Below are positions 5,748-42,099 of a DNA stretch of 52,405 nt, one piece after another. The position numbers and the translations under genes are program-made. Within the stretch, counting starts at the first letter, position 1; each line of letters begins with the position of its first letter. The notes under the pieces are model-generated. The model was not told the DNA's origin, did no database searches, and worked only from the letters and a program-made list of their open reading frames with translations. The stretch lies in IMG/VR virus record IMGVR_UViG_3300034101_004390, positions 1 through 52,405 of that record. The stretch is one strand, 5' to 3'. The DNA comes from a virus. Taxonomy: Duplodnaviria; Caudoviricetes.

Positions 5748-8087
5748 ATGGCGCTCACGCCCGGCCTCGTTCCAAACATCCGACAGGTTCCTGAATCGCC
5801 TGTGGGTGAGGTTGACCCTGCTGATGTCATTGTTGAAATGGCAGAAGAAGGCGGTGACATGCCGGACATCGACGATGCCGGCAACATTGTCCGCATCGAA
5901 CACGGCGATGGGAGTGTCACTGTTTCCTTGGACGGCCGTCCTATCGAAGAAGCGGAGCGCGGCACTCGCGGTGGTTGGTTCGATAACCTTGTCGATGAGA
6001 TCGACGAATTTGAAGTAAACCGCATTTCGAGCGATTTGCTCCGCGGTATTGAAGACGATCTGCAGTCACGAAAAGACTGGGTTGAAGATCGCGCCATGGG
6101 TATCAAACTCATGGGCCTCAAGGTTGAGATTCCGGGGCTGCAAGGCGCCTCGGATGGCGCGCCCGTCGAAGGTATGAGCAAGGTCCGGCATCCATTGTTG
6201 CTAGAAGCCGTGCTCCGATTCCAAGCCAACGCTCGCAGCGAGTTGCTGCCGACCGATGGCCCCGTGAAGGTCCGAAACGACACCCTAACGGGTGGTTTGG
6301 AGACCGATCAGCAGGCTGATGCCCTCGAAAAAGACCTCAACCACTACCTCACGGCAGTGGCAACCGAATACTACCCCGATTCCGATCGCATGCTTTTGAT
6401 GCTTGGATTCGGCGGAACATCGTTCAAAAAGGTCTACAACTGCCCGTTGCGTAATCGTCCGGTGTCCGAAACGGTCGATGCTGATGATCTGATCGTCAAC
6501 AACGCCGCGACCGACCTTGCGAACGCCAAGCGCGTCACGCAGCGCGTCTTCATGCGTCCTTCGACGGTCAAACGCCTGCAGATCTTGGGTGTCTACAAAG
6601 ACATCAGCCTGCAGACGCCGAACGCACCGAAGTTGGATTCGCTGCAGCGCGAAGAAAAGGCCCAGCAAGGCCTGATGCCAGAGACGCAGAACCCGGAAGA
6701 TCGCGATCGCGAGATCTACGAGTGTTACTGCGAACTCGACATTCTCGGTTTCGAGCACAAGCACAACGGCAAAATCACCGGTCTTGAGATCCCGTACGTG
6801 GTGACGATTGACCTGTCATCGCGTCAGGTGCTCTCCATCGTCCGTAACTACGACGAAAAGACCAAGAAACTGCCTGTCGCGCGCAAACGATTCGTCAAGT
6901 ACACGTTCGTGCCGGGTCTGGGCTTCTACGACATCGGTCTCTTGCACATTCTCGGCAACACAACGAACGCGATCACCGCTGCGTGGCGCGAGTTGCTCGA
7001 CGCCGGCATGTACTCAAACTTCCCGGGCTTCCTGATGGCCGATACCGGTGCCCGGCAGAACACAAATATCTTCCGCGTGCCTCCGGGCGGCGGAGCGTTG
7101 GTGAAGACGGGGGGTCTTCCGATCAATCAGGCCATCATGCCGCTGCCTTATCAGCCGCCCTCACAGGCCCTGATGATGCTCGTCGACAACATGGCCAACA
7201 CCGGTCAGCGTATCGGTGGCACGTCCGAGTCGATGGTGGGCGAAGGCAAGCAAGAACTGCCTGTCGGCACCGCCCTCGCGATGATTGAACAGGCTGCCAA
7301 GGTGATGAACGCCGTGCATAAACGCTTGCATGCGGCTCAGGCAGAAGAATTTAAACTGTTGGTCGAGTGTTTCCGCGAGAACCCGGAATCGTTTATCGAT
7401 CAAAAGTGCCCGTCGCGTCAGCCGTGGAACGAGCAAATGTTCCTGCAGGCCTTGCAAAACTGTGAACTCGTCCCGCAAGCCGACCCGAACACCGCCTCGC
7501 ACGCTCAGCGCCTCGTCAAAATTATGGCGCTTAAGGAGTTGCAGGCTGCAAACCCGTCGATGTACGACCCGATCGCGATCGACACCGCTGCGTTGAAGGC
7601 TATTGGCTGGAGCAACCCGCAGCAGTTCCTCGCACCGCCGTCCGCTCAGGGCAAGCCGCCGCCGGAACTGCAGAAGGTCATCGCCGAGATGCAGATCAAG
7701 AAGCAGGACGCCGATGCGCGCATGATCGACGCCAAGTCTCGCGAGGCGAAGACCATGGCCGAGATCCAGCACATGGGCCTCGAAGCGCAACATATGGCCG
7801 CTGGCGGTCTCGCCGCGGGTGGCGATGGCAGCAAGCAGGTCGACACGCCAGTCGATCAGATGCTCGCACAGGCCGATATCATGGATGCGCAGACCCGACA
7901 GGCAGATGTGCAGTTGAAGGCGCAGTACCATGCCGCCGAAGACCGCAATCGCGACCTCGACCGTCAGAGCCGCGAGCGCATCCAACTGCTGAATTTGGCC
8001 AAGGACGTCATGTTGCACCCGGGAGCCGGCCCCGAAGCCGCTCGCGATGTTGCACAGGTCCAGCGTGAAATTGCGCCGAAGCAATGA
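5748..8087 (+). CDS. Portal protein (P22-like, with long C-terminal helical barrel)
   Basis: Position after terL; 779 aa; motifs HPLLLEAVLRFQA, GxSFKKVY, GFYDIGLLH; Gln/Ala-rich helical C-terminus. Confidence 0.9.
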   Translation: MALTPGLVPNIRQVPESPVGEVDPADVIVEMAEEGGDMPDIDDAGNIVRIEHGDGSVTVSLDGRPIEEAERGTRGGWFDNLVDEIDEFEVNRISSDLLRGIEDDLQSRKDWVEDRAMGIKLMGLKVEIPGLQGASDGAPVEGMSKVRHPLLLEAVLRFQANARSELLPTDGPVKVRNDTLTGGLETDQQADALEKDLNHYLTAVATEYYPDSDRMLLMLGFGGTSFKKVYNCPLRNRPVSETVDADDLIVNNAATDLANAKRVTQRVFMRPSTVKRLQILGVYKDISLQTPNAPKLDSLQREEKAQQGLMPETQNPEDRDREIYECYCELDILGFEHKHNGKITGLEIPYVVTIDLSSRQVLSIVRNYDEKTKKLPVARKRFVKYTFVPGLGFYDIGLLHILGNTTNAITAAWRELLDAGMYSNFPGFLMADTGARQNTNIFRVPPGGGALVKTGGLPINQAIMPLPYQPPSQALMMLVDNMANTGQRIGGTSESMVGEGKQELPVGTALAMIEQAAKVMNAVHKRLHAAQAEEFKLLVECFRENPESFIDQKCPSRQPWNEQMFLQALQNCELVPQADPNTASHAQRLVKIMALKELQAANPSMYDPIAIDTAALKAIGWSNPQQFLAPPSAQGKPPPELQKVIAEMQIKKQDADARMIDAKSREAKTMAEIQHMGLEAQHMAAGGLAAGGDGSKQVDTPVDQMLAQADIMDAQTRQADVQLKAQYHAAEDRNRDLDRQSRERIQLLNLAKDVMLHPGAGPEAARDVAQVQREIAPKQ

Positions 8088-11000
8088 ACTTCGACCCGAA
8101 AGCCGTTCGACGGGCCTTGATGGTAGCGAAGGATCTCGCTACCTCGATTGACCCCGGCTTTGCCAATATCAACGTCCCGATGCCCCCTGAGGGCGTGCCG
8201 TTAGAGCGCGCCAAGGGCGGCCCGATCAAGACCGTTCAAGGTCCTGAGCGAGACCAAAACCTTAAAGATTGGTTGGGCGACAGTTTCCTGCACGTCGATG
8301 GCGTGCCGCGAACGTATTACCACGGCACGTCTAAAGACACGCTGTTCTCGTCATTTAAAGTCGGCCGTCATGGCGCATGGTTTGCGTCAGATCCCAAAGA
8401 AGCGTCGATGTATGCGTCGCAAAACGACAGCATGTCGTCGCGTTACGAAGGCGGCAGGTTTGTTCCAACTAATACCGCCAGCCGTGTGATGCCGGTGTAC
8501 CTCAAGGCAAGCAACCCGTACATGGGCGAATTTCCTGAGAAGTACAAAAACGTCGATAACTACAAAAAAGCAAATTCTGACTGGTTTGATGAACTACGTG
8601 CCGCCGGGTATGACAGTTGGGTGCCGCGTTCGCAGCAGGGCAATTTGGCCGTCATGCTTGAAGGTCCGCATCAGGTAAAGTCTGCGGTTGGCAACGACGG
8701 CACATTTGATCATCCGACGGACATTGCCAAAGCCGAAGGTGGCGCTGTTGACGACGACGAGATCCAACCGCGCAACTTGAACCCCATGGGTCTCTACAGC
8801 GCCGCGGCCGAGGCTGCGCGCGCTATCCCGCAAGAGCGTGGAACGCCGCAGCAGATGCTGGCGACCATGAAGGGCGTTAAGCCCGACGAACTCAATTGGT
8901 CTGGTGCGCAGAACAAGTTTGCCAACCAGAAGACAATCACCCGCGATGACTTGGCGCAGCACTTTGAAGACAGCCTGCCGCCGATTAGCGAACAAATCAG
9001 CGATAGATTTAGCGATTACACAGTTCCGGGTGGCGATAACTACCGCGCAACGTTGCTGACACTGCCACCTGATCTGTCTAAGCAGGCATATGGCACTGAT
9101 TTTAATCAGTACAGGAAAGAGTCGCACTGGTCAGAGCCAAACGTTATTGCGCATCTTCGCCTGAAAGATCGCGAGTATTCCGAGCGCAAGCGCACGCCGA
9201 AGCCGGATACAACGACGAACATTTCGGTAAACACGCCGCTGACCCCGTCTGGCGTGGGAACGCGCGCCATTGATGCATGGTCATCGCCGACGCCGGGCTT
9301 GGTGGTTACCAAGTCGCTGGAGCCTGACGAGCGCGGCTTGTTCCGTGTAACTCATGTCGGCACCGGTTTGAATGCCAGCGCTAACAAAGCGTTTTCATTC
9401 CCGCAGGCCATGGATGCCGCACGGCGCCTTGGTGAACTGTGGGACGGATGGGAAAAAGACGCTGATGCCGTTAAGGCATGGGCTAAGGAGAACGGTAAAG
9501 CCGCTCGCGATACGCTGAGTCAGGCGGCAAATCCGCTAGGCAAAAAAGCCTTGCATCTTGAGGAACTACAAAGCGATTGGGCGCAGGAAGGTCGCGAGAA
9601 AGGCTTTGTTGGGCCAAAAGACGTTCAGAAGGCCCAGCAAGACTTTGAGAATTTGAAGAAAGAAATTTCTGATAAATACGCAAAGTATTACGATGATTTG
9701 TTGTCTGCCGGAAATATAGATTCAAACCTTTCTTACTCATTTTTGAGTAATCACTACAACAACGTCGACGAAACGCGAACTCATTTCAACAAAAATACAC
9801 CGTATAAAATGTTCAAACTTCCGCTAGAAGATGACAAAAGCGGATTGTTTTTGTATCACAAGTTTCCAGAAGAGCCTGTAGATGAAGATCGTTTGCCGCC
9901 GGATGTGGCTGACAGGCTGATGAAGGCGCGCGAGAGCCATAACATCATTCAGAACTTTGATGAAAAAATCAAAGACCCTGAATATAGAAAACAAATTATT
10001 GATCAGCGAATGCAGGCTTTAAGCCCGCATACGTTTGCGCTTGAAATTGGCGATCCTTACTTGATTGCCAGATATCTTGAATTGGCTGGCGCAGAAAAAA
10101 GATTAAAAAAAGAAAAACTTCAAGAAGCGCCGTTTGTCACCAACACAAACCAGTGGACTGACCTTGGTCTGAAGCGCGCGCTTACCGAAGCGGCCCGCGG
10201 TGACTATGACAAATTGATATGGACTCCGGGCGCCGAGCAGGCTGATCGGTATAAGTTATCGAAGTACATCGATGAACTGAAATACCTGCAATCACATTCG
10301 GAAGGCCCAATCGCGCTAAAAGGATTTAAAAAGGGCAGGGAAATTTTTAACAAACAAGTTTCTTCTGAAGAATTAAATTCTTACGTCGGCAAAGACGTTG
10401 CAAAACAAATTTTGGAATCGCCAGAAGGCCGCGGGTCAATAAAAGGCGACAACTTGGCGATTGGCGGTCAGGGCATGCTGGAGTATTACGATCGCATCTT
10501 GCCGCGGCGCCTGTTAGCGCTAGCCCAAGAGCATGATCCCGAGGCCAAAATCGAGCCGCACAAAGAGGCCCGAGACCAAACCAAGAACTTTCCGTCGCTT
10601 CGTATCACGCCACGCATGCGTAAAAGCATCTTGAATCGCGGATTTAAGGCTTTTGCCCGTGGAGGTGCGGTGCAAAAACATTTGTTTAACGAAGAGCATG
10701 AAAGCCCATCGGTAAAGGTACCCGTCATGGATCACGATAAAGCGGTTCGGCGCGCGCTGATGATCGCCAGAGCCACTGGCGGCAAAGTATCTACGTTCCA
10801 GCAGATGGCAGATGCTCCGCCGGCAGATCCGTCAATCACGCCGACCGCCAATCCAAAGCGTTTGTTGTTTTCTGCAGAGGGCAAAGGCGGCGTAAAAGGC
10901 ATTGTTGTTCCCAAACATATGTGGGAAGGCGCCGAAAAGACTACCGGCATGCGCGATATCAACAAGGCTCGCGCAGAAGTGTACGGCGCAGAGAATCGCG

Positions 11001-12667
11001 ACCCGCTGACGCTCGGTCAGATCAGCAAAATTCACAAGCAAACGCTTGAAGATCACTTTGCTAAGCCCGTAGCGCAGCAAATTGCGGACGAAAAAGCAGC
11101 GTTGCAGCGCCTGCGTGCGGCAAAACACATCGCAAAAGACGCAAATACGCTGGATGAAAGCGAAAAATTAGACACCGTTCGGCATGAACGCGACGATCAA
11201 GGCCGAACTTACGTCGCATATGCCTCAAAAGGCATCGCCGGACACGCTTTGTACACGTCGGGATACGGCGATAACGAAAAAAAGATGGTGCTAAACACTT
11301 GCCCGGGCCAAACAACCGGCTGCGGTGGCGGAATTAGCCCGGATGGCGTCGTCGATACCAGCAAAGGCACCTGTTTTGCGCCAAATGCGGAGTCGCAATA
11401 CCCCGGCGCCGCGGTTCGACGCGCCTGTCACGCTCAGGCGAAGCATGATCCCGCGATGACGCAGGATTGGATTCTTGCGCACACCGGTTCACTGCGTAAC
11501 GCAGCAAAAAATGCCGATCGCAGCAATCAGGTGGTTCTGTTCCGCCCGAACGTGGTCGATGAAACAGACACAACGTCGCGATACGTCATCCAAAACCTGA
11601 ACAAACAGCGCCAAGAAGATGGCAAGCCCGGGATTGTTGCCAATTCGTACGGCAAGACAAACGAGTTGCATGACCCGGAGAACGGGTATTTTGTGACGCA
11701 CTCCAACGTTGGCCCAAAGACCAAGTTGGGGTCATCAATTGCCGAAAACATTAGCCGCGACAACCAGCGTGTTCGGTCGACGATTGATGCCGCAGACGCC
11801 AGAGGCAAGGATTTCACCAACGACAACGGTAATCTGACGCCGCCGAAAAACTCGTACATGGTGACCGACGTCAAGCGCTACTCACCGCTTGATCAGGCAA
11901 TGCAGCAGGCGATTACGCATGCTAAGTATTGGTCGACCGGTCGCGAGCAAAATCAATTGTCGGATGCTGAGTTGGCAGAAGGGCCGGAAGGCCACTTTGA
12001 CGGCAGCGGCGCCCCGACAACGCCAGACATGGCGCACTACGGTCACACCACGCTAAACGGCCGCCGTTACGACTATCAAAAGCAGCACATTTTGCATCCG
12101 CGCATGGTGCAGGTCGGCAACAACGACGACGGCACCCCGCACATGATCCCAACCGACTCCCGGTTCAAAGATAACGAGTTTTTGCCGGAAGATCGTTTTA
12201 TGACAAAGAACGGCAAGCAGGCCGGTGCAATCCTGATGACGACGCCGACGACGTCAACCAGCGCCATCCTGCATCAATCCCCGTTCACGCATCACGTTGA
12301 CGACAGTCACGTCCAGTACGCGCTGCAAAACAACGGCGAGTATCAGATTGATTCGCCGGATCAGCAGGAAGCCAGCCGCGGCAAAGAATACGTGCAGCCG
12401 CAGCCGGTGTTTTTCCGCGCCGAGGGCGGCCGTGTCGACAACATCCATGTTGACCGGCAGTCCGACGATCCGCATGCGTTCCCAGAGCAAAACTTTGTCA
12501 CGCAAATGCACATGGCAAAGCGTCTGGGCGACGACGAGAGCCATTTGCACGAAGTTCGCAAAGGCAAAAAGCCCCTGCCCGTAGACGCGGCAAATGTCGA
12601 AAAGGCCTTGCAAGTTGCGCGTAAATTCAGTCCAGTACCCGGTATGATGGTCACCATCAAGAAATAG
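8084..12667 (+). CDS. Large polyvalent (probable virion cargo) protein: ART-PolyVal-like domain + EELQSDW domain + GP88-like Cys domain
   Basis: YYHGT...GAWFAS...PVYL...GYD...QVKS (ADP-ribosyltransferase-like); LEELQSDWAQ; TCPGQTTGC...TCFA; domains separated by xAxGG sites. Confidence 0.75.
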   Translation: MNFDPKAVRRALMVAKDLATSIDPGFANINVPMPPEGVPLERAKGGPIKTVQGPERDQNLKDWLGDSFLHVDGVPRTYYHGTSKDTLFSSFKVGRHGAWFASDPKEASMYASQNDSMSSRYEGGRFVPTNTASRVMPVYLKASNPYMGEFPEKYKNVDNYKKANSDWFDELRAAGYDSWVPRSQQGNLAVMLEGPHQVKSAVGNDGTFDHPTDIAKAEGGAVDDDEIQPRNLNPMGLYSAAAEAARAIPQERGTPQQMLATMKGVKPDELNWSGAQNKFANQKTITRDDLAQHFEDSLPPISEQISDRFSDYTVPGGDNYRATLLTLPPDLSKQAYGTDFNQYRKESHWSEPNVIAHLRLKDREYSERKRTPKPDTTTNISVNTPLTPSGVGTRAIDAWSSPTPGLVVTKSLEPDERGLFRVTHVGTGLNASANKAFSFPQAMDAARRLGELWDGWEKDADAVKAWAKENGKAARDTLSQAANPLGKKALHLEELQSDWAQEGREKGFVGPKDVQKAQQDFENLKKEISDKYAKYYDDLLSAGNIDSNLSYSFLSNHYNNVDETRTHFNKNTPYKMFKLPLEDDKSGLFLYHKFPEEPVDEDRLPPDVADRLMKARESHNIIQNFDEKIKDPEYRKQIIDQRMQALSPHTFALEIGDPYLIARYLELAGAEKRLKKEKLQEAPFVTNTNQWTDLGLKRALTEAARGDYDKLIWTPGAEQADRYKLSKYIDELKYLQSHSEGPIALKGFKKGREIFNKQVSSEELNSYVGKDVAKQILESPEGRGSIKGDNLAIGGQGMLEYYDRILPRRLLALAQEHDPEAKIEPHKEARDQTKNFPSLRITPRMRKSILNRGFKAFARGGAVQKHLFNEEHESPSVKVPVMDHDKAVRRALMIARATGGKVSTFQQMADAPPADPSITPTANPKRLLFSAEGKGGVKGIVVPKHMWEGAEKTTGMRDINKARAEVYGAENRDPLTLGQISKIHKQTLEDHFAKPVAQQIADEKAALQRLRAAKHIAKDANTLDESEKLDTVRHERDDQGRTYVAYASKGIAGHALYTSGYGDNEKKMVLNTCPGQTTGCGGGISPDGVVDTSKGTCFAPNAESQYPGAAVRRACHAQAKHDPAMTQDWILAHTGSLRNAAKNADRSNQVVLFRPNVVDETDTTSRYVIQNLNKQRQEDGKPGIVANSYGKTNELHDPENGYFVTHSNVGPKTKLGSSIAENISRDNQRVRSTIDAADARGKDFTNDNGNLTPPKNSYMVTDVKRYSPLDQAMQQAITHAKYWSTGREQNQLSDAELAEGPEGHFDGSGAPTTPDMAHYGHTTLNGRRYDYQKQHILHPRMVQVGNNDDGTPHMIPTDSRFKDNEFLPEDRFMTKNGKQAGAILMTTPTTSTSAILHQSPFTHHVDDSHVQYALQNNGEYQIDSPDQQEASRGKEYVQPQPVFFRAEGGRVDNIHVDRQSDDPHAFPEQNFVTQMHMAKRLGDDESHLHEVRKGKKPLPVDAANVEKALQVARKFSPVPGMMVTIKK

Positions 12668-13686: not shown

Positions 13687-13761
13687 CCCCAGCACGAAAT
13701 TGGAGAAGAATCAACCCCGTGAATTTCCCGCATAGCGTTGATTCGTACTAGGAGCACGAAC

Positions 13762-15171: not shown

Positions 15172-15184
15172 TGGAGCGTTTGTA

Positions 15185-17114: not shown

Positions 17115-17130
17115 GGGAATTTGACTAAAT

Positions 17131-17169
17131 AAGCCCCGGGGTCTATACAGTAGGCTCCGGGGTTTTTTT
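17131..17169 (+). terminator. Intrinsic terminator overlapping a probable promoter (TTGACT 17121-N17-TATACA 17144)
   Basis: CCCCGGGGTCTA/TAGGCTCCGGGG stem (2 GU pairs) followed by T7. Confidence 0.75.
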
Positions 17170-17228: not shown

Positions 17229-17240
17229 GAGGTAATTCTC

Positions 17241-19698: not shown

Positions 19699-19992
19699 AT
19701 GAAAGGCAGAAAGCATCGCGCCACTGGTGGCGTGAATCAGGCCGCAGAGGATCTTGACCGCAAGAACCTGCGCTATACGTATCAGAGCAACGTCAATGAC
19801 GAAGCCGAAGAGCGTAAGCGTGGTGGTAAGGTTGCCAAGAAGCACGTCGGCAAAATGCATGGCGGAATGTCCAAAATGCATGCCGGCCGCAAGCCTCGCA
19901 AGTCGGGCGGCAGTTGCGAAAGCAGCCCGTTCTCGTCTGCCCGCCGCGGAACGACCCCCAAAGGTCGCACCGTCGACGGCAGCCTTGACTGA
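19699..19992 (+). CDS. Small basic protein with three RxxGG motifs
   Basis: AGGAG RBS; RATGG, RKRGG, RKSGG. Confidence 0.8.
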   Translation: MKGRKHRATGGVNQAAEDLDRKNLRYTYQSNVNDEAEERKRGGKVAKKHVGKMHGGMSKMHAGRKPRKSGGSCESSPFSSARRGTTPKGRTVDGSLD

Positions 19993-33349: not shown

Positions 33350-33841
33350 ATGGCTGACGATATCAAGATCAGAGTTGCGACCGCCGAAGACCTCGACGAG
33401 ATTATGAAAATCGCGTTGGCGGCATGTGAAGAGAACGGATTCCTGAACCCAAACCCGCAGAAACTGGCCGCTGAGATTTGGCCGGCTCTGCATCAAGACC
33501 ACGGTATTTGTGGCGTTATCGGCAAACCGGGCGGCCCAATTGAGGGCGTCGTCCTGCTGCGCATCGGTAGCATGTGGTATTCCGACGCTCAGGTTGTCGA
33601 AGAGAAGGCTATTTTCATTCACCCAGAATTTCGTAGCGCCAAAGGCGGACGCGCTAAGCGCCTGTGCGAATTCAGCAAGAAGGTTGCTGATACTCTTGGA
33701 ATTCCGCTGATTATCGGCGTACTATCCAATAGCCGCACAGAAGCCAAAGTTCGCATGTACGAGCGCCAGTTTGGCAAACCAAGCGGTGCTTTCTTCCTCT
33801 ACGGCGCAAAAACCGGAGAGTTCCAGAGAATGGAGCAGTAA
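33350..33841 (+). CDS. GNAT-fold protein preceding ejection proteins
   Basis: IRVATAEDL, WYSD...EKAIFIHPEFRS, YERQ motifs; conserved position before internal virion genes in podoviruses. Confidence 0.75.
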   Translation: MADDIKIRVATAEDLDEIMKIALAACEENGFLNPNPQKLAAEIWPALHQDHGICGVIGKPGGPIEGVVLLRIGSMWYSDAQVVEEKAIFIHPEFRSAKGGRAKRLCEFSKKVADTLGIPLIIGVLSNSRTEAKVRMYERQFGKPSGAFFLYGAKTGEFQRMEQ

Positions 33842-36800
33842 ATGGGCGGCAAAACAAGTAAGAGTACCCAAACAGTATCCATTCCACCGGAGGTACTGGC
33901 GCGGTACAACGCAGTTAACGCGCGTGCTGAGGACGTCGCCAGCCGGCCGTTTCAGCCGTACTCTTACAACCCCGCCGACTTTGTCGCCCAACTGACTCCG
34001 ACCCAGTTGGCGGGTATTCAAAACGTCAACTACGCCGCCGGACAGGCTCAGCCGTACTTCGACGAAGCCACCAATCAGTTGATGGGCGCCCAAATGGCCG
34101 CCACGCCGTATTACGCTCAAGCAGAGCAGGATGTCGGTTACGGCCAGCAGTACGGCATGGCCGGCACTCAGGCTGCCCAGAATCTAATGTACGGCGGTAT
34201 CAATGCCGCTTACCCGCTGAACTATCAGTCTTTGCAGACGATGGGCGCTGCTCAAGATGTCGGCGCGCAGTTGGCGCGACAAGCATATGCTCAGCAGGCC
34301 CGTGCAGGCGCAACTGCAGATCCGTTCAATTACGCAGCATCTGGTGCATATCAGCAGGGTTATGGGCAGGGACAGGAACTGCTCGGTCGCGGAGTTGAAC
34401 AGTTTTATGGCGCATTAGGCGCTGCTCAGCCACTGCAATACGAAGCAGCCGGCGGCATTCGAGATGCGCTGGGTGTGGGTCGTCAGTTAGGCGCTCAGTC
34501 GTATGCAACGACGCAGCGAGCCGGCGAAACGACCATGCCGATCAACTATCAGTCGCTGGCAGGTTTGCAGCAGGCTCTTGCAGCCGCGCAGCCTTATACG
34601 CAAGAAGCGACCCAGCGATACGGTGTTGGTTTAGAAAAAGCCGATCCTCTGCAGCAGTATGCTTTGCAGACGTTAGGTCGAGCCGGTATGACCGGCGAAT
34701 CGATCTCTGGCGAAGCACTAGGAAGCCTTGCTCGCGCTGGATACGCCGCACAGCCTTTGCAGCAGTTGGCTCAGGGCATTTACGGCGAAGCCTATCAAGG
34801 CGCGCAGCCCTACAACGTTGCCGCTCTCCAGCAGTATTACGGCGGCCTCGGCGCCGCTGGCCCAATAAGCCAGCAAGCCCTACAAAACGTCGCTGCCGCT
34901 CAGGCTGGCGCGCAACCGTATCAGCAGTATGCAACTGAACTCGGTCTTGCTGCGGCTCGCCCGGTAGCGCCGGGTCAATTGACTGGATTCGAGATCGGTC
35001 AGTATATGAGCCCGTACATGTCGACCGTGGTCGGCCAGACGCAGGCTCTGCTCAATCAGCAAGCGCAGCAGGCTCAGGCCGAACAGACTGGTAATGCGAT
35101 TCGTGCGGGCGCCTTCGGTGGCGACCGTGCTCGTATCGCTGCCGCAAACCTTCAGCAACAACAGCAGTTGGCGCAGGGTAAAGTCCTTGGAGATCTTCTG
35201 CAGTCTGGTTACGGTCAGGCGCTGCAAACCGCTCAGCAACAGCAGCAGATCAATCTTTCTGCCGAGCAAGCCAACCGCGCCGCTCAACAGGCCGCTGCAG
35301 GTCAGTTGCTTGGCGTTGGTCAGACCGGATTCGGTCAGGGCATTTCTGCCGCTCAACAGCAGGCCGCGTTGGCTCAGCAGTTATTCGGCCAGCAAATGGC
35401 CGCCGGTCAAGGCATCGCAGGCCTCGGTCAGCAAACGTTTGCTCAAGGTCTATCGGCTGGTCAAGCGCAGCAGGCTCTCGCGCAACAGTTGTTCGGCCAA
35501 GGCGCCACGACCGCTCAGCAGCAGGCTGCGATCGCTCAGTCGCTGTTTGGTCAGGGCGCAACGTCGGCAGCCCAACAGGCCGCTCTCGCTCAACAGATGT
35601 TCGGCCAGCAGGCTACGACCGCTCAGGGTCTTGCCGCCCTTGGTCAGCAGTTGTACTCGCAGGGCACCGGCACCGCACAGGCTCAGGCTGCAATCGGCCA
35701 GCAGATGTTTGCGCAGCAGATGGCGCAGGCACAGCAAGAGGCCGCTCTCAGTCAGATGCTATACGGGCAGGGCCTTGGCGCTTCACAAGCGCAAGCCGCT
35801 CTTGCTCAACAACAATTTGCTCAGCAACAAGGTGTTGGGCAAAACCTGCTCGCCGCTGGCCAGCAAGGCTTTCAGCAGGGCTTAGGTCTCGGTCAAGCCC
35901 AGCAGGGCCTTGGTCAGCAGTTATTTAGCCAAAACATGCAGCAGGCTCAGCAGCAGGCTGCACTGAGTCAGTTGTTGTTTGGCCAAGGCACGACCGCCGC
36001 ACAACAGCAAGCCGCAATCGGCCAGCAGTTGTTTGGTCAGGGCCTCAGCGCCTCGCAGCAGCAAGCCGCACTGGGTCAGCAGGGTTTTGCTCAGCAGTTA
36101 GCCGCCGCTCAGGCTCGTCAGCAGTTGGGTCAAGGCCTATACGGTATGGGCACAGGTACGGCCCAGCAGTTGGCAGCCCTTGGCACAGGCGCTCAGGGCG
36201 CTGCTCTGCAGGGTGCTCAGGCTCAGTTGGCTGCGGGTCAAGCCCAGCAGCAGACCGCTCAGGCTGGCCTACAGGCGCTTTACAACCAGTTCCTGCAGCA
36301 GCAGGCGTATCCGTTCCAAGTCGCGCAGTTCCTCGGAAACATCGCGATGGGTACGGGCGCGCTTTCTGGATCAACCACGACGACGGTACAACCGGGCAGC
36401 ATTTTCCAAACGTCTGACATCCGCGCAAAAGAGAACGTACGCGAGGTTGGTAAGACGCTCGATGGGCAGCCGATTTATGCTTACAACTACAAGGGCGACC
36501 CGAAAACCCAGATGGGTCTTATCGCTCAGGAAGTTGAAGAGCGACATCCTGATGCAGTAGCAAAAATTGGCGGCTTGAAGGCCGTTAACTACGAGCGCGC
36601 CACTCGCGATGCGGCTCGTCGCGGTGATGCTATCGACGCGGAATTTTCGCCGATTAGCGAAGGCGGCTCCGTAACACGCGAGCGCGCCGGTCTCGGCTTT
36701 GCCGACGGCGGAATGCCTGATACGAATGATGCAGCAAATCGCGCTGAAGAAGAGATGAAGCAGCGTCAACAAGAGCAGGCTGCTCAAAATGAACAGCGTG

Positions 36801-39772
36801 CAGCGCAGGCGGCAGTACAGACTGCAAAGCAACAGGCTCCCGCCGCCAAACAGGCACCTGCTCCGCAAGTTGATCTCAAGCCGAATTTGAGCGTCAAACC
36901 GGAAGTTGGTGGTGCTGCTCTTGCAAAAATAGATATTCCAACAGCGCCACCGTCAATTCCTCAGTTGGCTGTTGCTGGTCCTGCTCCCGCTGCGGATCAA
37001 GGATCAAAAGACGCTCAGGCGATTGCCGCGTTGATGATGGCTTTTTCAGATCGCCGTATGAAAGAAGACGTGAAGCACATCGGTTTCACGCATGACGGTC
37101 AGAAAATTTACAGTTATCGCATTAAAGGTCAGCCGCACACTCAGATTGGCCTGATGGCTGACGAGGTGCAAGAGCACAAGCCTGAGGCGGTCGGCTCGAT
37201 GAACGGCCTGAAAATGGTCGATTACGATCGCGCCACTGAAGATGCAGCGCGTAAGTCGCGCGGCGGTTATGCCGATGGCGGTAGCCCGGGTCTTGCAAGC
37301 CCGACTGACATGGCTGCGTTACTTGCGGCGCAAGCGCAGATGTTTGGGCCGTTCGGCGACTACGCTCGTACGTTGACTGGCAATCCGGGTGCGCCGGGAT
37401 ATGTCCCGGGCGCCAATTTACCTATTAGTAATTTAGTAACAGCCGGTGCTTTGCCAACTCAGCGTTCTACGGCGGATGACGTTGAGTCTGCTGTGAATAT
37501 CGGTAAAGGCATTAAAGAGTTACGCACGCCGAAGGAAGCGCCAAAACCGGCGGAATCAAAGACGGAAACAGAAGTTCCGGGTGCCGTAGCAAGCGGAGAG
37601 CCTGTTTCAGAAACGGAATATTCAATTGAACCTGCCAACCGATATCGTGGCGGCCTTGCATATGCTGATGGCGGGCAAGTCATTCCGTATGCCGCTCAAA
37701 CTGGGCTTAATATTCCGGTAGAAATGAAGACGCCGGAGTTGATGAAGCCGGGTTCATCACCGAAACAGCGCAGCACTATGGATGATGTTGCGCAAGCCTT
37801 AGGAATCGCATCAGATGTTAAGAATTTGATGCCGAAGGCTTATGGCGGATCGATTGGCCGCAACGGTTATGACGCCGGCGGTAATCCAACGTTTGCAGAG
37901 CGCTTTATTCCGGGTATTCAAACGCAAGAAGGCGTTGACGAAAATCGTCGCGCAATGATGGATTTCATTGAGAAGCGGGTTCTTAAAAATCCGTACCTAA
38001 ATACGGCCGAAGCCGCGCGTTTGCGTGATGAGCGTTTGCGCATGCAGCCGACGTCTGCTGCTCCGGCAACTACCGGAACGCCTCCTGCGCCTCCCGCAGC
38101 ACCTGCTACGACGCGTCCGCAGGCTCCTCGCCCAGTCGCCGATCTGACTGCCGCAAACAAGCCGCTGCCGTCTTCCATGTTTGCCAACTTGCCTGAATCT
38201 TTGGAACCGGGCTTGGCTACTGTGGTTCAAAGTCCTGCCGTTGGCGCTGGGCCGATGATTACGCCACCGGCCCCAGCCGCTGCTCCAACTGGTGGATTGG
38301 TTCCGCCTTCTGCCGCTGCGCCTGTTACGACTCCTGCTGCGGCTACGGCGCCGGCTGCTCCGACTGGTTTGCAGCCGCCTGCGGCACCTGCTGCAACGAC
38401 TCCGGCAACGCAGAAAAAGCCCGGCATATTGGACTGGCTGCGTAAGGAAGAGAATTACATTCCGCTTCTTCGTGGCGCTGCTGCCGCTGTGGCTGCTCCG
38501 ACGCAATACACGTTACCTGCGCTACTTGTTGGCGCTGGCGCTTACGGTAAAGCCAAGGGAGATGTTCTGCAGCAGTTGGCGGACATCGAGGCTATTAAGG
38601 CCGGAACAGAAGCAACACGGGCCGATATCAAGTTGTCTCTGGCAAATCTCCCAAGGCAGGCAATCGTTACGGATGCTCAAGGCAGAACGTTAGGCGTTCG
38701 AGTCTTCGGTCCGAACAACGAGATCATAATGATCCCGCCGGGTGAGTTCTTCCGCCGTCAAAAAGCGGGAGAGAAATTCAATTTTGCTTTTGCAACCGAG
38801 AGCGGACTCGGGCAAGTTCAGCCGGGCGCGCCAGCAACGCCTGCCGGAGCGCCAACGGCGACCCCAGCAGCGCCGACTGCGGCTCCTGCAACGGGCCAAC
38901 CCCAAAAGCCGGTTTATCAGCAAATCCCTCAGGATATGATGCCCGGCGTAATTCAAAGGGCTGACGCTGTTCAGGAAACGGGAATTCCGGCTCTTTCGGC
39001 TCAGAAAGAAAACAATCCGTTTACAGGGCAGGCATCACTGGCTCAGGCTGAGCGTGAAAACCGCTTCACCCGCAATACGCTTGCGAAGGCTTTCGTTGAA
39101 TTGCCCGCAAGTCAAAGCGGTGTGTTTTCTGCCGAAGTTGCCAATCCGCTGTTTAACTATGTAAGCAGCGCGCTGACGTTCTTTGGCGTATCGCCAGAGT
39201 TCTTAAAGCAATATGTGCGCGACCCGAAAGACATTGCCAATCAAGAAGTGGTGAACAAGATCACCACTCAACTTGCCCAGCAGATGCAGACCGAAGGCGG
39301 TGGCGTGGCTCTTGGCAAGTTTATGGCTTTGCTTGAGTCAATTCCGCGCTTATACAACACGAAGACAGGTCAAGCAGATCTTGTTGCAAGCATGTTTGTA
39401 AACTCGCAGCGCAACCTTGACGTAGATCGATTCAACAACTTGTATCGAAATGCTCTGCAAGATGCTGGCGGTTTGAACTCTGCACAGTCTGGATACGCTG
39501 GCCGCGGATTAGAAGCCGAATTTTCTCAGCGCCAAGATCCGTACTATCCAATTGAAAAATCAATTATTTCGGACATGTTCTTAAGTAAGGTAAAAATCAC
39601 GTCAAACGGACAACAAAAGGAAGTGCCTTTGCTGAAGTTCGTTATCGACTCCGGCGGAGAAATTCCGCCCGCGTTGAAAAAAGTGATTGTTGATAAATAC
39701 TCCAAGAAAAACCCAGACGGGTCGATCGCATACGACGCATCGAACGTTCTTCGTTACTTCGGGGGTGGTTGA
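33842..39772 (+). CDS. Giant DNA-ejection/internal virion protein with 18-aa repeats and two peptidase S74 (intramolecular chaperone) domains
   Basis: MGGK N-terminus; YMSPY...AGAFGGDR core; SDIRAKENV...GLIAQEVE...VNY and SDRRMKEDV...GLMADEVQ...VDY. Confidence 0.85.
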   Translation: MGGKTSKSTQTVSIPPEVLARYNAVNARAEDVASRPFQPYSYNPADFVAQLTPTQLAGIQNVNYAAGQAQPYFDEATNQLMGAQMAATPYYAQAEQDVGYGQQYGMAGTQAAQNLMYGGINAAYPLNYQSLQTMGAAQDVGAQLARQAYAQQARAGATADPFNYAASGAYQQGYGQGQELLGRGVEQFYGALGAAQPLQYEAAGGIRDALGVGRQLGAQSYATTQRAGETTMPINYQSLAGLQQALAAAQPYTQEATQRYGVGLEKADPLQQYALQTLGRAGMTGESISGEALGSLARAGYAAQPLQQLAQGIYGEAYQGAQPYNVAALQQYYGGLGAAGPISQQALQNVAAAQAGAQPYQQYATELGLAAARPVAPGQLTGFEIGQYMSPYMSTVVGQTQALLNQQAQQAQAEQTGNAIRAGAFGGDRARIAAANLQQQQQLAQGKVLGDLLQSGYGQALQTAQQQQQINLSAEQANRAAQQAAAGQLLGVGQTGFGQGISAAQQQAALAQQLFGQQMAAGQGIAGLGQQTFAQGLSAGQAQQALAQQLFGQGATTAQQQAAIAQSLFGQGATSAAQQAALAQQMFGQQATTAQGLAALGQQLYSQGTGTAQAQAAIGQQMFAQQMAQAQQEAALSQMLYGQGLGASQAQAALAQQQFAQQQGVGQNLLAAGQQGFQQGLGLGQAQQGLGQQLFSQNMQQAQQQAALSQLLFGQGTTAAQQQAAIGQQLFGQGLSASQQQAALGQQGFAQQLAAAQARQQLGQGLYGMGTGTAQQLAALGTGAQGAALQGAQAQLAAGQAQQQTAQAGLQALYNQFLQQQAYPFQVAQFLGNIAMGTGALSGSTTTTVQPGSIFQTSDIRAKENVREVGKTLDGQPIYAYNYKGDPKTQMGLIAQEVEERHPDAVAKIGGLKAVNYERATRDAARRGDAIDAEFSPISEGGSVTRERAGLGFADGGMPDTNDAANRAEEEMKQRQQEQAAQNEQRAAQAAVQTAKQQAPAAKQAPAPQVDLKPNLSVKPEVGGAALAKIDIPTAPPSIPQLAVAGPAPAADQGSKDAQAIAALMMAFSDRRMKEDVKHIGFTHDGQKIYSYRIKGQPHTQIGLMADEVQEHKPEAVGSMNGLKMVDYDRATEDAARKSRGGYADGGSPGLASPTDMAALLAAQAQMFGPFGDYARTLTGNPGAPGYVPGANLPISNLVTAGALPTQRSTADDVESAVNIGKGIKELRTPKEAPKPAESKTETEVPGAVASGEPVSETEYSIEPANRYRGGLAYADGGQVIPYAAQTGLNIPVEMKTPELMKPGSSPKQRSTMDDVAQALGIASDVKNLMPKAYGGSIGRNGYDAGGNPTFAERFIPGIQTQEGVDENRRAMMDFIEKRVLKNPYLNTAEAARLRDERLRMQPTSAAPATTGTPPAPPAAPATTRPQAPRPVADLTAANKPLPSSMFANLPESLEPGLATVVQSPAVGAGPMITPPAPAAAPTGGLVPPSAAAPVTTPAAATAPAAPTGLQPPAAPAATTPATQKKPGILDWLRKEENYIPLLRGAAAAVAAPTQYTLPALLVGAGAYGKAKGDVLQQLADIEAIKAGTEATRADIKLSLANLPRQAIVTDAQGRTLGVRVFGPNNEIIMIPPGEFFRRQKAGEKFNFAFATESGLGQVQPGAPATPAGAPTATPAAPTAAPATGQPQKPVYQQIPQDMMPGVIQRADAVQETGIPALSAQKENNPFTGQASLAQAERENRFTRNTLAKAFVELPASQSGVFSAEVANPLFNYVSSALTFFGVSPEFLKQYVRDPKDIANQEVVNKITTQLAQQMQTEGGGVALGKFMALLESIPRLYNTKTGQADLVASMFVNSQRNLDVDRFNNLYRNALQDAGGLNSAQSGYAGRGLEAEFSQRQDPYYPIEKSIISDMFLSKVKITSNGQQKEVPLLKFVIDSGGEIPPALKKVIVDKYSKKNPDGSIAYDASNVLRYFGGG
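34046..34963 (+). repeat. 17 degenerate 18-aa (54-nt) repeats, arm 1 (AQP[YL]xxxA...)
   Basis: Counted by hand in translation; register holds from AQPYFDEA to AQPYQQYA. Confidence 0.75.
35321..36184 (+). repeat. 16 tandem 18-aa (54-nt) repeats, arm 2 (QQLFGQGxxxAQQQAAL[AG])
   Basis: Aromatic residue every 18 aa without indels. Confidence 0.9.
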
Positions 39773-42099
39773 TGGCTCTTCCAGAGGACGAAACGCAATT
39801 TGAGATTGTTAGCGGCGCACCTGCAGTTTCCGGTGTTCCTGCCAACAACGCTGAGCGTGAAACATTTGAAATAGTTCCAATGGAAGCGGAGGCAAGAAAG
39901 CCTCCTCCTCAGCAGCCGACTCCAGATCGATCCGGCGTTCGCGTTGGCGCAACTCGTTTTCAGCAGGCCCGTGCTCCAGCGGCACCCAGCGAAAAAGAAC
40001 TTTCGTGGGAAGAAACCGCTCGCGGGTTTGGCAGAACAATTGTTCCAAGCACTATCGAGGCTGGCCGCGCCACATTGCAGGCATTAAATCCTGCAAACTT
40101 GGATGAAACATATGCGGGCCTAAAGCAATTAGGTGTTGGCGCCGTATCGAAAGGCCAGCGTGCCTTAGGCATTTCTCAAAATAAATCAGAAGCCGCAGAA
40201 GATGAGCGCGCCCTAAATGCATTCATCGAAGGGTATAAAAATACATACGGTTCGATGGCCGGGTTCAAACGCGCTTTAGCGGAAGACCCTGCAAGTGTAT
40301 TGCTAGATTTATCAACTTTTCTTACCGGCGGCGCAGGCGCCCTTGGAAAGGCTGGTCTTGCGTCTGAAAAAGCGGTCAGGATTGCACAACGCGCCGGAAC
40401 CGCTATAGATCCGTTGCAAACCGCTTTGAAGGTGGCAAAAGCCCCGGTCGTAGGCGTCAAAGTTCCTTTTACACAGAAGAGGATTCCCGGCGCCGCTCAG
40501 ATGTCCACGCTTGCATTTGGTTTGACGACTGGCCGGTCGCCTGAATTAATACAGCAGGCAGCGCGAACTGCAATGGAAGGAACCCCAGAGCAAAGAGATG
40601 CGTTCCTTAAATTTTCTAGCAAAAACGCTGACGACATGGAAATTGTCGACGTGGCCGCCAACGCATTGCAGAAAGCAAAGAAAGCGCAGCGAGATGCGTA
40701 TGAGAAGTCGATGGCAGCATCGAATGCCCGTGCGCCAAGCGTAGACTTTAATCCTGTGTTATCAGCAATCGATAACGAATTAAATTCTTATCAAACAGTG
40801 ACCTCAACCGGCAAAAAACTACCTAAGAACAAAGGCGCTGTAGAGTTGTTAGAAGAGATTGGTCAAGAGGCTCTTGAATATGCAACCGGGCCGGTTGGTT
40901 CTGTTGAGCGAAGTATTTTTAGTGCCGATGCTCTTAAGCAACGAATCGGCGAATTAATGAATACTTATAAGAACAACCCTCAAGCGTATCGAGCGGGCGT
41001 TGCTGCGTATAACGCTGTCAAAACCGCAATTGGCAAGTCTGACCCCGAATACATGCGAATCATGCGTGAATACGAAGATGCGCAGGAAATAATCAACGAT
41101 ATTCGCATGGGTCTCGGCGTTGGCCGCGCATCGCCTGAAACAGTTCTTAGTCGTTTAATGCCGAAGAAGAAACCGTCAACTCGAAAAATGTTGATTGAAG
41201 ATCTTGCTAAATTTGACGACCGAATCCCGCACATGATTGCGGGCGCATCTTTGCGCGAGACGGTGCCGGGCGGATTGCAGGCACTGCTTAGCGGCGTAAC
41301 TGGGTTTGCAGTCCATCCTGTTGCATTCGCTGGCCAACTGGCGGCTTCCTCGCCTAAGGTTGTTGGCCGAGGCGCATATGCCGCAGGAAGACTTGGGGCT
41401 GCTGGCCGTGCGATTACTCAGCCCGGTGTTGTGCTTCCCGCTTACTACGCCGGACGCGCGCGAGAAGAAGTGGTTAATCAAGCAGCCGCATCGCCAGAGC
41501 AAGAAGAAGTTTTTAATAAGATGCTTGGCATCGAAAGCAGCAATCGTCAATTTGATGCAAAAGGAAACACGATTCTTGGCCCAGAAGTTCAAACTGAATT
41601 CGGGCGTCATCGCGCTGTAGGTATTGGGCAGGTCATGCCATACACCGGCCCCGAGGCAGCAGAGGCTGCTGGCGTCGAGTGGAATGAAGAAAGGCTGTAC
41701 AACGATGCGGAGTACAACAAGACATTAGCCCGCGCGTACTTTGACAAACAAGTTCAAGAGTTTGGAAGCGTTGTTACCGCTGCCGCGGCATATAACGCTG
41801 GTCCTGAGCGCGTCCGACAAGCAATCAGAAAGGCTGAAGAGACGGGCCAATCGTTCATTGAGTTTTTGCCTCAAGAAACTAAAAACTACTTGCAAAAAAT
41901 ATTTGGCGAATCTGGCGGTGAATTTCGTATTGAGCGCAAGTCTGGCGGCCGCGTCGACAGCGTCGAGCGCCTTGTTAGCCAGTTGATGCTGCGCACGAAG
42001 CAGGCCAAGCGCGAGACAACGAAAGCGACGGAACCTTTACTTGACCAGCCTGACGAATCGATCGTAAAAGCCCTCGACGTGGCTCAGCAGGCGATCTAG
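39772..42099 (+). CDS. Internal virion protein with C-terminal lytic transglycosylase (SLT) domain
   Basis: IESS, AVGIGQVMP, AAYNAGP, ETKNY motifs; TGATG coupling. Confidence 0.88.
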   Translation: MALPEDETQFEIVSGAPAVSGVPANNAERETFEIVPMEAEARKPPPQQPTPDRSGVRVGATRFQQARAPAAPSEKELSWEETARGFGRTIVPSTIEAGRATLQALNPANLDETYAGLKQLGVGAVSKGQRALGISQNKSEAAEDERALNAFIEGYKNTYGSMAGFKRALAEDPASVLLDLSTFLTGGAGALGKAGLASEKAVRIAQRAGTAIDPLQTALKVAKAPVVGVKVPFTQKRIPGAAQMSTLAFGLTTGRSPELIQQAARTAMEGTPEQRDAFLKFSSKNADDMEIVDVAANALQKAKKAQRDAYEKSMAASNARAPSVDFNPVLSAIDNELNSYQTVTSTGKKLPKNKGAVELLEEIGQEALEYATGPVGSVERSIFSADALKQRIGELMNTYKNNPQAYRAGVAAYNAVKTAIGKSDPEYMRIMREYEDAQEIINDIRMGLGVGRASPETVLSRLMPKKKPSTRKMLIEDLAKFDDRIPHMIAGASLRETVPGGLQALLSGVTGFAVHPVAFAGQLAASSPKVVGRGAYAAGRLGAAGRAITQPGVVLPAYYAGRAREEVVNQAAASPEQEEVFNKMLGIESSNRQFDAKGNTILGPEVQTEFGRHRAVGIGQVMPYTGPEAAEAAGVEWNEERLYNDAEYNKTLARAYFDKQVQEFGSVVTAAAAYNAGPERVRQAIRKAEETGQSFIEFLPQETKNYLQKIFGESGGEFRIERKSGGRVDSVERLVSQLMLRTKQAKRETTKATEPLLDQPDESIVKALDVAQQAI

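Follow-up and report, generated by a model that had tools for sequence, protein, structure and literature searches.

In phages T4 and phiKZ/SPN3US, as set out in PMC3012670 and PMC5694885, targeting propeptides bring proteins to the scaffolding core, and a motif-specific protease removes these propeptides and fragments the core proteins. For polyvalent proteins, PMC5512222 proposes processing into units by a zincin-like MPTase domain. The DNA considered here, hereafter the window, is the whole of an IMG/VR virus record (IMGVR_UViG_3300034101_004390; 52,405 bases, about 90% complete), and the subject of this study is a short motif centred on Gly-Gly that recurs in six proteins encoded in it: a polyvalent protein of 1527 amino acid residues (aa), the basic disordered head protein p387, the small basic protein p97, the gp14-like ejection-module protein p217, a large ejection protein of 1976 aa and the ejection protein p776 with an SLT transglycosylase domain. 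The original prediction, made from this DNA, had proposed that about 25 [RKFYM]xxGG sites lie at domain boundaries in these six proteins, and that the proteins are polyproteins cut there to release ejectable effector domains. The results confirm that the motif exists, that it operates at the protein level and that packaged or ejected proteins are specifically marked by it; its sharpened form is [K/M/Y/F/R]-A-x-G-G-x-[V/I], a nine-residue Pro-free core located in Pro/Gly-rich disordered linkers. Motif-marked head cargo is in itself already known, and the Gly-Gly signal is apparently what is added here; literature searches, covering open-access papers only, gave no phage paper for the motif pentapeptides among the matches listed and no paper joining a prohead protease with Gly-Gly. 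The motif thus appears to be undescribed; cleavage at the motif during head maturation is the reading tentatively placed first below.

Enrichment of the Gly-Gly Motif in the Window

All 15 individually named sites were found in the window at the nucleotide positions that had been given for them (Table 1). The site counts required correction: p387 (13738..14901) contains 13 matches to [RKFYM]xxGG rather than nine, p97 (19699..19992) contains four rather than three, and SAKGG of p217 lies outside the residue class [R/K/F/Y/M] by which the motif had been defined. To assess enrichment, each protein was shuffled 500 times with its composition preserved. In the six proteins (4980 aa), 36 matches to [RKFYM]xxGG stand against 10.4 ± 3.1 after shuffling, and none of the 500 shuffles reached 36. 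The control set, from which six Gly-rich proteins were left out, consists of 22 other proteins that each contain under 12% Gly (5725 aa); it has nine matches versus 5.6 ± 2.3, a number reached by 57 of the 500 shuffles. The expected enrichment over the remaining open reading frames (ORFs) is therefore present, and so is the continuation x-[VI] ascribed to many of the sites, which was found 10 times in the six proteins versus 0.9 ± 0.9 expected (0/500) and once in the other proteins versus 0.7. A residue of the [RKFYM] class precedes the GG runs at position −3 in 35 of 63 cases in the six proteins (background 0.199, binomial p 4.5e-10) and in 9 of 47 cases in the other proteins (p 0.49). Tested singly, p217 (2 versus 0.9) and p776 (2 versus 1.1) show no significant enrichment. 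Both the pattern and the six proteins were picked after inspection of the data; because the pattern was defined post hoc, the real test lies in the relatives, which provide the independent support.

Codons differ between the copies, as had been noted: Gly-Gly is encoded by seven codon pairs in 21 sites, with GGC GGC in 10 of them and Ala mostly encoded by GCC, and this variation indicates that conservation acts at the protein level. Outside the six proteins, two of the matches to the loose pattern turned out to be ordinary fold motifs, namely the mobile loop of the GroES-like protein and the coenzyme A (CoA)-binding loop of the GNAT acetyltransferase (Table 1).

Consensus and Cargo Specificity in Related Phages

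The 120 best of at least 364 polyvalent homologues yielded 1233 unique GG contexts. Ala occupies position −2 in 41% of them (background 8.7%), K/M/Y/F/R/H occupy position −3 in 50% (background 26%), and V or I stands two residues past GG in one third (background 9%). When the motif was defined by its left half alone, [RKFYMH]-A-x-G-G (537 unique contexts from 190 proteins), the +2 position contained V in 61% and I in 16% of the contexts, i.e., V or I in 77%; Pro was scarce from −4 to +4 (0–3.7% versus 6.5%) and frequent at −9, −7, −6 and +5 (17–19%), and a hydrophobic residue was present 5–6 positions before GG. The residues adjoining GG vary, being acidic in the polyvalent proteins and basic in p387 and p97, while GG itself is invariant.

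Five relatives were fetched whole, making six near-complete genomes together with the window. The strict motif recurs in one and the same set of orthologues in all six, namely the polyvalent, basic disordered, small basic, 217-aa, large ejection and SLT proteins. Its density in 28 cargo proteins (89 motifs in 23,311 aa, 3.82 per 1000 aa) is eight-fold higher than in 390 other ORFs (37 motifs in 80,317 aa, 0.46 per 1000 aa), and several of these 37 motifs belong to cargo-like proteins not linked to the set by BLAST. The motif is sparser in the more distant phages HTVC023P and Caulobacter phage RW, and it is dense in MW202545.1, the head genes of which have a different order.

Pseudomonas phage F116, the sole named phage matching the N-terminal ART part of the polyvalent protein, is devoid of the motif system. 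In the close relative MW202675.1 (8831–16328), three genes encoding proteins of 739, 847 and 898 aa replace the single polyvalent gene; each of the three products bears the motif, and the first ends with HARGGVAK.

Location of the Motif at Module Joints

The 1527-aa protein is composed of an ART-PolyVal domain (residues 72–208; 56.1 bits with a cut-off of 31.2), an uncharacterised 640-aa module, a GP88-like 530-aa module (residues ~913–1443) and a C-terminal tail, and it conforms to the description of a polyvalent protein as a multi-domain effector with PolyVal domains encoded among virion genes. The claim that the sites lie at domain boundaries is upheld by Pfam ranges, AlphaFold-predicted disorder and homology breakpoints. 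According to the Pfam ranges, the ART domain lies between the sites at residues 42 and 216, and the SLT domain of p776 (residues 613–693) precedes the site at residue 723; an additional match, RYEGG (8441), which had not been listed, falls within the ART domain and does not count as a linker site. The comparison of more than 100 polyvalent proteins shows that the motif marks mosaic breakpoints: 17% of 2065 BLAST homology-breakpoint clusters are located within 5 aa of a motif versus 4% of random positions, and the median distance from breakpoint to motif is 33 aa versus 102 aa for random positions. Longer proteins contain more motif clusters (Spearman 0.52, p 1.3e-9, n = 120 polyvalent homologues); the median spacing of the clusters is 162 aa, and the upper quartile, 540–570 residues, corresponds to the GP88-like core flanked by motifs on both sides. 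In two AlphaFold models, of the region 901–1449 and of p217, the sites lie within, or border on, stretches whose predicted local distance difference test (pLDDT) score is below 50.

The region 901–1449, containing the GP88-like core, is 65–77% identical in at least 364 database proteins of 855–2163 aa, the other domains of which differ (ART-PolyVal, PF14284, ASCH, NUDIX, others, or none). After the core, Ala and GG are each conserved in at least 90% and V in 80% of 139 unique homologues, and the nine columns past this motif fall to 20–40%; together with the invariant GG pairs in p97 and p217, this agrees with the expected conservation of the sites amid divergent sequence. The model of the region has a mean pLDDT of 89.5, with the first 12 residues (901–912) and the last six below 50, and these low-scoring ends are the stretch next to RATGG and the stretch containing RAEGG. 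The core (10820–12410) also contains three invariant Cys residues with the spacing C-x6-C-x16-C. A BFVD search using the model confirmed the GP88 family only; the core may be a packaged enzyme. ESM Atlas searches with the two uncharacterised modules of the polyvalent protein gave only unnamed viral clusters at 0.80–0.81, or nothing.

The two basic proteins have a high density of sites. The likely true start of p387 is ATG 13762 (MSELAKK), as in its homologues, which contain 340 to 769 residues and roughly 9 to 17 copies of the loose pattern. In p97, three of the four GG pairs (19717, 19813 and 19897) are invariant in 37 homologues with a mean column identity of 41%; in the fourth, KMHGG (19852), which is not among the invariant pairs, Gly G55 is nearly invariant (at least 90%). 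In p217, SAKGG closes an N-terminal helical hairpin and KAEGG stands ahead of the C-terminal module; the two GG pairs do not vary among 42 homologues, and Ala before the second GG is conserved in at least 90%. The AlphaFold model of p217 (pLDDT 67) comprises three folded parts and two segments with pLDDT below 50: residues 43–58, starting with the GG of SAKGG, and residues 115–157, which end at KAEGG.

Database searches found 3667 homologues of p217 and no Pfam family for it. Its N-terminal helical hairpin is also known as a stand-alone 52-aa PHROG family and is followed in p217 by two similar beta-beta-alpha-alpha modules, and its C-terminal module reappears at the end of the polyvalent protein P0082, to which it is fused.

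The motif lies between terminal elements, shared by several cargo proteins, and the neighbouring folded module, in either order and with a spacing of 0 to ~55 residues. The helix precedes GG at the N-terminus and in the interior of the 1527-aa protein and in p217, and GG precedes the helix in the tails of the 1527-aa protein and p776. The N-terminal helix of the 1527-aa protein (Table 1) is a candidate targeting or anchor element; its pattern D-x-x-A-V-R-R-A-L-M-x-A-K recurs at 10736–10771 (residues 885–896) and, in a weaker form, at 12596–12628 (residues 1505–1515), and it forms the C-terminus of many polyvalent homologues. The tail G-R-L-E-K-x-E-I-Q-K-H-K-K ends the basic protein p387, and its variant D-T-M-R-L-E-L-T-K-K-A-K ends many polyvalent proteins. 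The C-terminal helix of p776, x-x-x-A-L-x-[VI]-A-x-x-x-I-COOH, is maintained in the window and in five orthologues, with Lys before A-L in five of the six and Asn in G001. Alternative C-terminal tails are common to otherwise unrelated cargo proteins (12596–12664, 14854–14898 and 42058–42096; P0001–P0120), and the set also includes V-R-R-A-L-M-I-A-K-G-x-K-K-K, V-P-G-M-I-P-P-Y-G-R-R and V-x-K-A-L-x-I-A-x-x-x-I; these shared tails are candidate packaging signals.

Predicted Self-Processing Modules in the Large Ejection Protein, and the GG Site of p776

The 1976-aa ejection protein matches PF13884 (Peptidase_S74) with 58.2 bits overall at a cut-off of 22, the match covering two stretches, of which the second alone scores 31.1 bits. 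Both modules begin with S-D-x-R-x-K, the Ser...Lys start of the S74 self-cleaving chaperones, and all six orthologues contain one or two such modules, each beginning with F-F/x-S-D-x-R-x-K. Since the S74 modules are present in all six orthologues, the large ejection protein is very probably, as judged by its sequence, a self-processing polyprotein cut at S858 and S1069, and not at the GG sites; its Gln/Ala-rich N-terminal 857 residues are predicted to be a trimer that is cut free. The pair of S74 modules is the only recognisable proteolytic element.

Residues ~430–850 of the same protein (35100–36400), before the first S74 module, consist of degenerate Gln/Ala/Gly-rich repeats of ~20 residues (..AQQQAALAQQLFGQG..). 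In p776, five orthologues with 33–42% identity contain an R/Y-x-x-G-G-R/K site ~45–65 residues before the C-terminal end or helix.

Possible Functions of the Motif

The explanation preferred here, tentatively and with somewhat less than even confidence, is that the GG motif is a maturation cleavage site, working like L/I-x-E of T4 and S/A/G-x-E of phiKZ/SPN3US. Cargo proteins would be recruited into the procapsid through their terminal helices and tails (V-R-R-A-L-M-I-A-K, V-x-K-A-L-x-I-A and G-R-L-E-K-x-E-I-Q-K-H-K-K), and cutting at the GG signals would then free the enzymatic modules from these anchors and from one another, while the basic core proteins would be chopped into small DNA-associated peptides; the protease might come from the host, or one of the conserved virion proteins might contain it as a fold not recognised as such. 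Cleavage is ranked first because the number of motifs scales with the number of modules, which cleavage needs and docking does not. The cargo specificity also argues for it, since known prohead-protease motifs are recognised by the same pattern, and so do the location of the sites in predicted disorder at domain edges, their place between folded modules and putative anchor helices, and the need for processing that PMC5512222 predicted for polyvalent proteins. The free residues beside the invariant GG resemble P3 and P1' in GG-specific proteases; the high density of sites in the two basic disordered proteins parallels the T4 core proteins that are cut into small fragments, and self-cleaving S74 modules already exist in the same ejection protein.

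Several results weigh against cleavage. The conservation on both sides of GG (77% V/I at +2 and a hydrophobic residue 5–6 positions before) suits a docking hairpin at least equally well. Many GG-specific proteases refuse Pro directly after GG, and Pro at this position is just halved (3.2% versus 6.5%) and is present in the conserved RAKGGPIK. Pfam searches with 48 ORFs of the window found no peptidase but Peptidase_S74, PHROGs searches with 18 ORFs found no protease, and six-frame searches of the five related genomes for S78, ClpP, S49, C48 and C39 gave no match, the controls having worked for S78, ClpP and S49 and, for C48, in one genome. The statement that no HK97-type or ClpP-type prohead protease is recognisable thus stood up to the Pfam, PHROGs and six-frame S78/ClpP searches. 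The six-frame searches for S77 and C5 were also empty (0/5 genomes each), but their controls gave no match over the cut-off. No fold match was found for the p217 model, and Foldseek gave no PDB match for the GP88-like model at E up to 0.001; the best rows of VIA-align for the latter were nearly all radical-SAM enzymes, with Z of at most 5.4, under the noise mark of the tool. A separate scaffold without a cleavage motif is the pattern of the protease-free P22- and T7-type heads, and the single RSSGG of the scaffold-like protein p297 is not conserved, leaving the scaffold without a conserved motif.

Searches with the whole polyvalent protein and its two uncharacterised modules at E up to 1 found no peptidase family, including the zincin-like MPTase. 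The proteins p297, p206 and p198 were considered as hidden proteases and rejected, as their alignments contain no convincing catalytic set and PDB sequence profile searches found nothing below E 0.02; p297 has the look of a scaffold protein, with a coiled coil and, at its C-terminus, a pair of helices. The main texts of the papers on HTVC023P-type phages (PMC9599517) and CRP-901 (PMC10149686) contain no virion proteomics, and that of PMC9599517 does not mention a protease.

A possible but less probable explanation than cleavage is that the motif is a tag for cargo loading or retention, i.e., a docking peptide, probably a β-hairpin with GG at the turn, which would attach to a conserved procapsid component, such as the interior surface of the HK97-fold shell, the scaffold or the portal, and would not be cut; many copies would give avidity, and the function would be like that of an encapsulin targeting peptide. 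The anatomy of a short linear motif, with a Pro-free core from −4 to +4 flanked by 17–19% Pro, favours docking, as do the conservation of both sides of GG with V/I after it in 77%, the multivalency in the basic proteins, and the shared terminal helices and tails, which show that the cargo contains common short recognition elements. The failure to find a protease in the window ORFs or in the six-frame searches of five genomes points the same way, as does the type of the head, which has a separate scaffold, a kind that usually lacks a protease, and a capsid protein of the Mu gpT/HK97 kind. Yet one tag per protein suffices for docking, whereas the motif is present at nearly every joint in numbers that scale with the modules; moreover, the residues neighbouring it are acidic in one protein class and basic in another, and no partner was identified. 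The motif is also not enriched at the extreme termini, the usual place of tags. Extreme C-terminal placement was considered as an argument for docking and rejected: in 120 polyvalent proteins, none of 588 motifs lies within 8 aa of the C-terminus versus 4.2 expected, and the six genomes contain one motif near the extreme C-terminus versus 3.1 expected. Isolated C-terminal cases in relatives are HARGGVAK*, FKKGGKVNW* and YMDGGRV*, where the asterisk is the stop.

Perhaps, with a likelihood similar to that of docking, the motif serves as a portable code for both address and release: a motif-flanked module with a terminal helix would dock to the HK97-fold shell or the scaffold in an encapsulin-like manner and would later be delivered to the host, and, if it is cut, the protease would be one for which tailed phages have so far offered no recognised example, either a host enzyme or a new fold hidden in a conserved virion protein.

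An unlikely alternative to cleavage is a structural joint, a tight turn or hinge allowing compact storage and unfolded threading through the tail channel, or else a target for ADP-ribosylation or acetylation by the packaged ART and GNAT. The presence of the motif at each joint, in disordered linkers, is compatible with both versions, and the ART domain and the conserved GNAT (5/5 relatives), which are encoded among the cargo genes, are compatible with modification. A hinge leaves unexplained the 41% Ala at −2, the aromatic or basic residues at −3, the 77% V/I at +2 and the invariance over hundreds of homologues; as for modification, many polyvalent homologues carry the motif but have no ART domain, and the residue classes at −3 are too mixed for a single acceptor.

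It is very improbable that the motif mimics the GroES mobile loop in order to hold large cargo on the host chaperonin. The head module does contain a conserved GroES-like gene (Cpn10, 24.5 bits), the loop of which, KTKGGIVL, fits [RK]xxGGx[VI]; GroEL binding, however, uses three consecutive hydrophobic residues after GG, whereas the cargo motif has one, with neighbours that are mostly Ser, Ala or charged, and Caulobacter phage RW has a GroES-like gene but few motifs.

The last explanation, a by-product of composition or module shuffling, i.e., chance occurrence in Gly-rich linkers or recombination micro-homology, could draw on the preponderance of GCC for Ala, on GGC GGC in 10/21 sites and on the coincidence with mosaic breakpoints, but it is already largely refuted by the shuffles (0/500 reach the observed count), by the codon variation, by the invariance of the motif at fixed positions in the non-mosaic p97, p217 and p776 orthologues, and probably also by its nine fixed bases, which would be too few for homologous recombination.

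Taxonomic Position and Gene Layout

Judging by its sequence, the window is a nearly complete genome of an HTVC023P-type podophage, a freshwater member of this group, an assignment based on capsid identities and on capsid relatives in IMG/VR. The capsid protein shares 89% identity with its counterpart in MW202675.1, 42% (over 99% of its length) with that of Pelagibacter phage HTVC023P, and 39–40% with those of Roseobacter phages CRP-901/902; the IMG/VR capsid search gave at least 594 confirmed relatives, the best 80 of which are 90–98% identical. Matches were also found for the portal, the terminase, the GroES-like protein, p297 and a 693-aa tail protein, and the capsid, portal, terminase, GroES-like and scaffold-like genes and their order are shared with HTVC023P-type phages. 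The late genes are located on the + strand (Table 1).

Table 1. Genes, Gly-Gly motif sites and related elements in the 52,405-base window; res, residues.
Feature	Position	Strand	Remark
Small and large terminase	3411 / 3895	+	
Portal (SU10_portal)	5748-8087	+	
Polyvalent protein, 1527 aa	8084-12667	+	Directly after portal gene
N-terminal amphipathic helix DPKAVRRALMVAKDLA	8093..8140	+	Res 4-19 of 1527-aa protein
Motif RAKGG (RAKGGPI)	8207..8227	+	Res 42-48, after N-terminal helix module; RA[KE]GG at 42 in many homologues
Motif KAEGG (KAEGGAV)	8729..8749	+	Res 216-222, just past ART domain
Motif FARGG (FARGGAV)	10652..10672	+	Res 857-863, end of 640-aa module
Motif RATGG (RATGGKV)	10769..10789	+	Res 896-902, directly after internal helix, just before GP88-like module
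Motif RAEGG (RAEGGRV)	12416..12436	+	Res 1445-1451, directly after GP88-like module
Pro-rich protein, 336 aa	12676-13686	+	
Basic disordered Pro/Met/Gly-rich head protein (p387)	13738-14901	+	387 aa from TTG 13738
C-terminal signal ALGRLEKVEIQKHKK of p387 (candidate)	14854-14898	+	Common to some polyvalent proteins
GroES-like protein	15125-15574	+	Cpn10, 24.5 bits
KTKGGIVL, GroES mobile loop	15308		Fits loose [RK]xxGGx[VI]
Coiled-coil scaffold-like protein (p297)	15586-16479	+	
Three small proteins	16494 to 18754	+	
Major capsid protein	18770-19681	+	Mu gpT-like / HK97 kind
Small basic protein (p97), 97 aa	19699-19992	+	Just 3' of major capsid gene
Sites of p97	RATGG 19717, RKRGG 19813, KMHGG 19852, RKSGG 19897	+	
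Adaptors and Gly-rich fibres	3' of 97-aa protein gene	+	
gp14-like ejection-module protein (p217), 217 aa	32694-33347	+	
Motifs of p217	SAKGG 32811, KAEGG 33150	+	
GNAT acetyltransferase	33350-33841	+	
SAKGGRAKR, GNAT CoA-binding loop	33635		
Large ejection protein, 1976 aa	33842-39772	+	
Peptidase_S74 module 1	36413..36600	+	Starts at S858 in SDIRAKENV; FADGG ~95 residues later
Peptidase_S74 module 2	37046..37240	+	Starts at S1069 in SDRRMKEDV; KSRGG-YADGG ~70 residues later
Motifs of 1976-aa protein with A at -2	FADGGMP 36698, YADGGSP 37268, YADGGQV 37661, KAYGGSI 37835	+	
Looser matches in 1976-aa protein	KSRGG 37253, RYRGG 37640, YDAGG 37868, RYFGGG 39752	+	RYFGGG is C-terminal
Ejection protein (p776), 776 aa	39769-42099	+	C-terminal SLT transglycosylase (res 613-693)
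Motif RKSGGRV	41935..41955	+	Res 723-729 of p776, between SLT domain and C-terminal tail
C-terminal helix SIVKALDVAQQAI of p776	42058..42096	+	Res 764-776
Lysozyme	44595		

The Pro-rich 336-aa protein contains V/T-S-T-G-G-K-G-F-Q three times and has no homologue in the five relatives compared. The GroES-like protein, whose gene is flanked by those of the basic core protein and of p297, has a 44-residue N-terminal extension and is kept across the group; PMC9599517 lists its gene as a core gene. The GNAT gene, located between the genes of the gp14-like and large ejection proteins, is found in five of five relatives and also on the genome maps of CRP-901, and its product may be a packaged enzyme. 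The early region on the minus strand (45100–52100) encodes ERF, a YqaJ-like exonuclease and a protein with a weak NinB-like match; the DNA polymerase and helicases of HTVC023P did not turn up among the window ORFs scanned.

Significance and Comparison with Known Systems

Phages of the HTVC023P type, like their freshwater relatives, occur in very large numbers, and all of their injected proteins carry one conserved signal; among these proteins is a highly variable arsenal of effectors, joined to a GP88-like core that they have in common. With the motif as a simple rule, packaged cargo can be looked for in the sequences of metagenomic phages. If the motif is cut, an entire group of phages would mature their heads by a new specificity and a new enzyme, and sequence alone would reveal the boundaries of hundreds of injected effectors; if it serves in docking, it would be a natural signal that could be transferred to foreign proteins in order to load them into phage heads, and a functional link between capsids and encapsulins.

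Like the C-terminal S74 domains of endosialidases and tail fibres, the large ejection protein has two Pfam S74 matches with the S-D-x-R-x-K start; unlike in tail fibres, these modules are located in the middle of an ejection protein and not at the end of a fibre, and the predicted cuts at S858 and S1069 are not at GG and cannot account for the motif in the other five proteins.

Adenovirus protease (adenain) cuts at (M/L/I)-x-G-G-x, with a hydrophobic residue two positions before GG, and the basic DNA-bound core proteins of adenovirus are cut into small peptides. As in the targets of adenain, African swine fever virus (ASFV) pS273R and Ulp1/SENP, the motif here is a Gly-Gly dipeptide with free adjoining residues. 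The analogy with adenain that had been drawn for the window is out of register: the position two before GG is occupied by Ala (41% of 1233 contexts) and not by the hydrophobic residue of the adenain consensus, and the comparison is loose because the bulky residue stands one place further from GG, at −3. The lineage also differs, being that of an HK97-fold tailed phage, and six-frame searches for proteases of clan CE gave 0/5 genomes for C48 (the control worked in one) and 0/5 for C5 (the control was without a match over the cut-off).

The locus resembles the polyvalent proteins described in PMC5512222 in having ART-PolyVal in the head module and homologues that join the same core with many effector domains, and it differs from the processing proposed there in that the zincin-like MPTase domain was not found. 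The main text of PMC5512222 contains neither the word linker nor the word glycine; the GG joint motif and the GP88-like common anchor are thus not described in that text.

In encapsulins, an HK97-fold shell is combined with short Gly-containing peptides in flexible Pro/Gly/Ala-rich linkers, which mark the interior cargo. The shell fold and the short Gly-containing peptides in flexible linkers are shared with the window, but the motif here has another sequence, its copies are many and mostly internal, unlike the single, terminal targeting peptides of encapsulins, and its binding to the shell is putative.

T4 (gp21) and phiKZ/SPN3US (gp175/gp245) offer a close comparison. Unlike in these phages, no prohead protease gene was found here (Pfam gave no S77, S78, ClpP/S14 or S49 match in 48 window ORFs, and the six-frame searches no S78, ClpP or S49 match in the five related genomes), the scaffold-like protein is without a conserved site, and the motif is Gly-Gly based and conserved on both sides, with sites that are not mainly N-terminal but also internal and C-terminal. 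As in T4 and phiKZ/SPN3US, many of the proteins that are ejected or lie inside the head are enriched in a short motif, its sites are located between short, putatively targeting propeptides and the mature parts, and the core proteins contain multiple sites.

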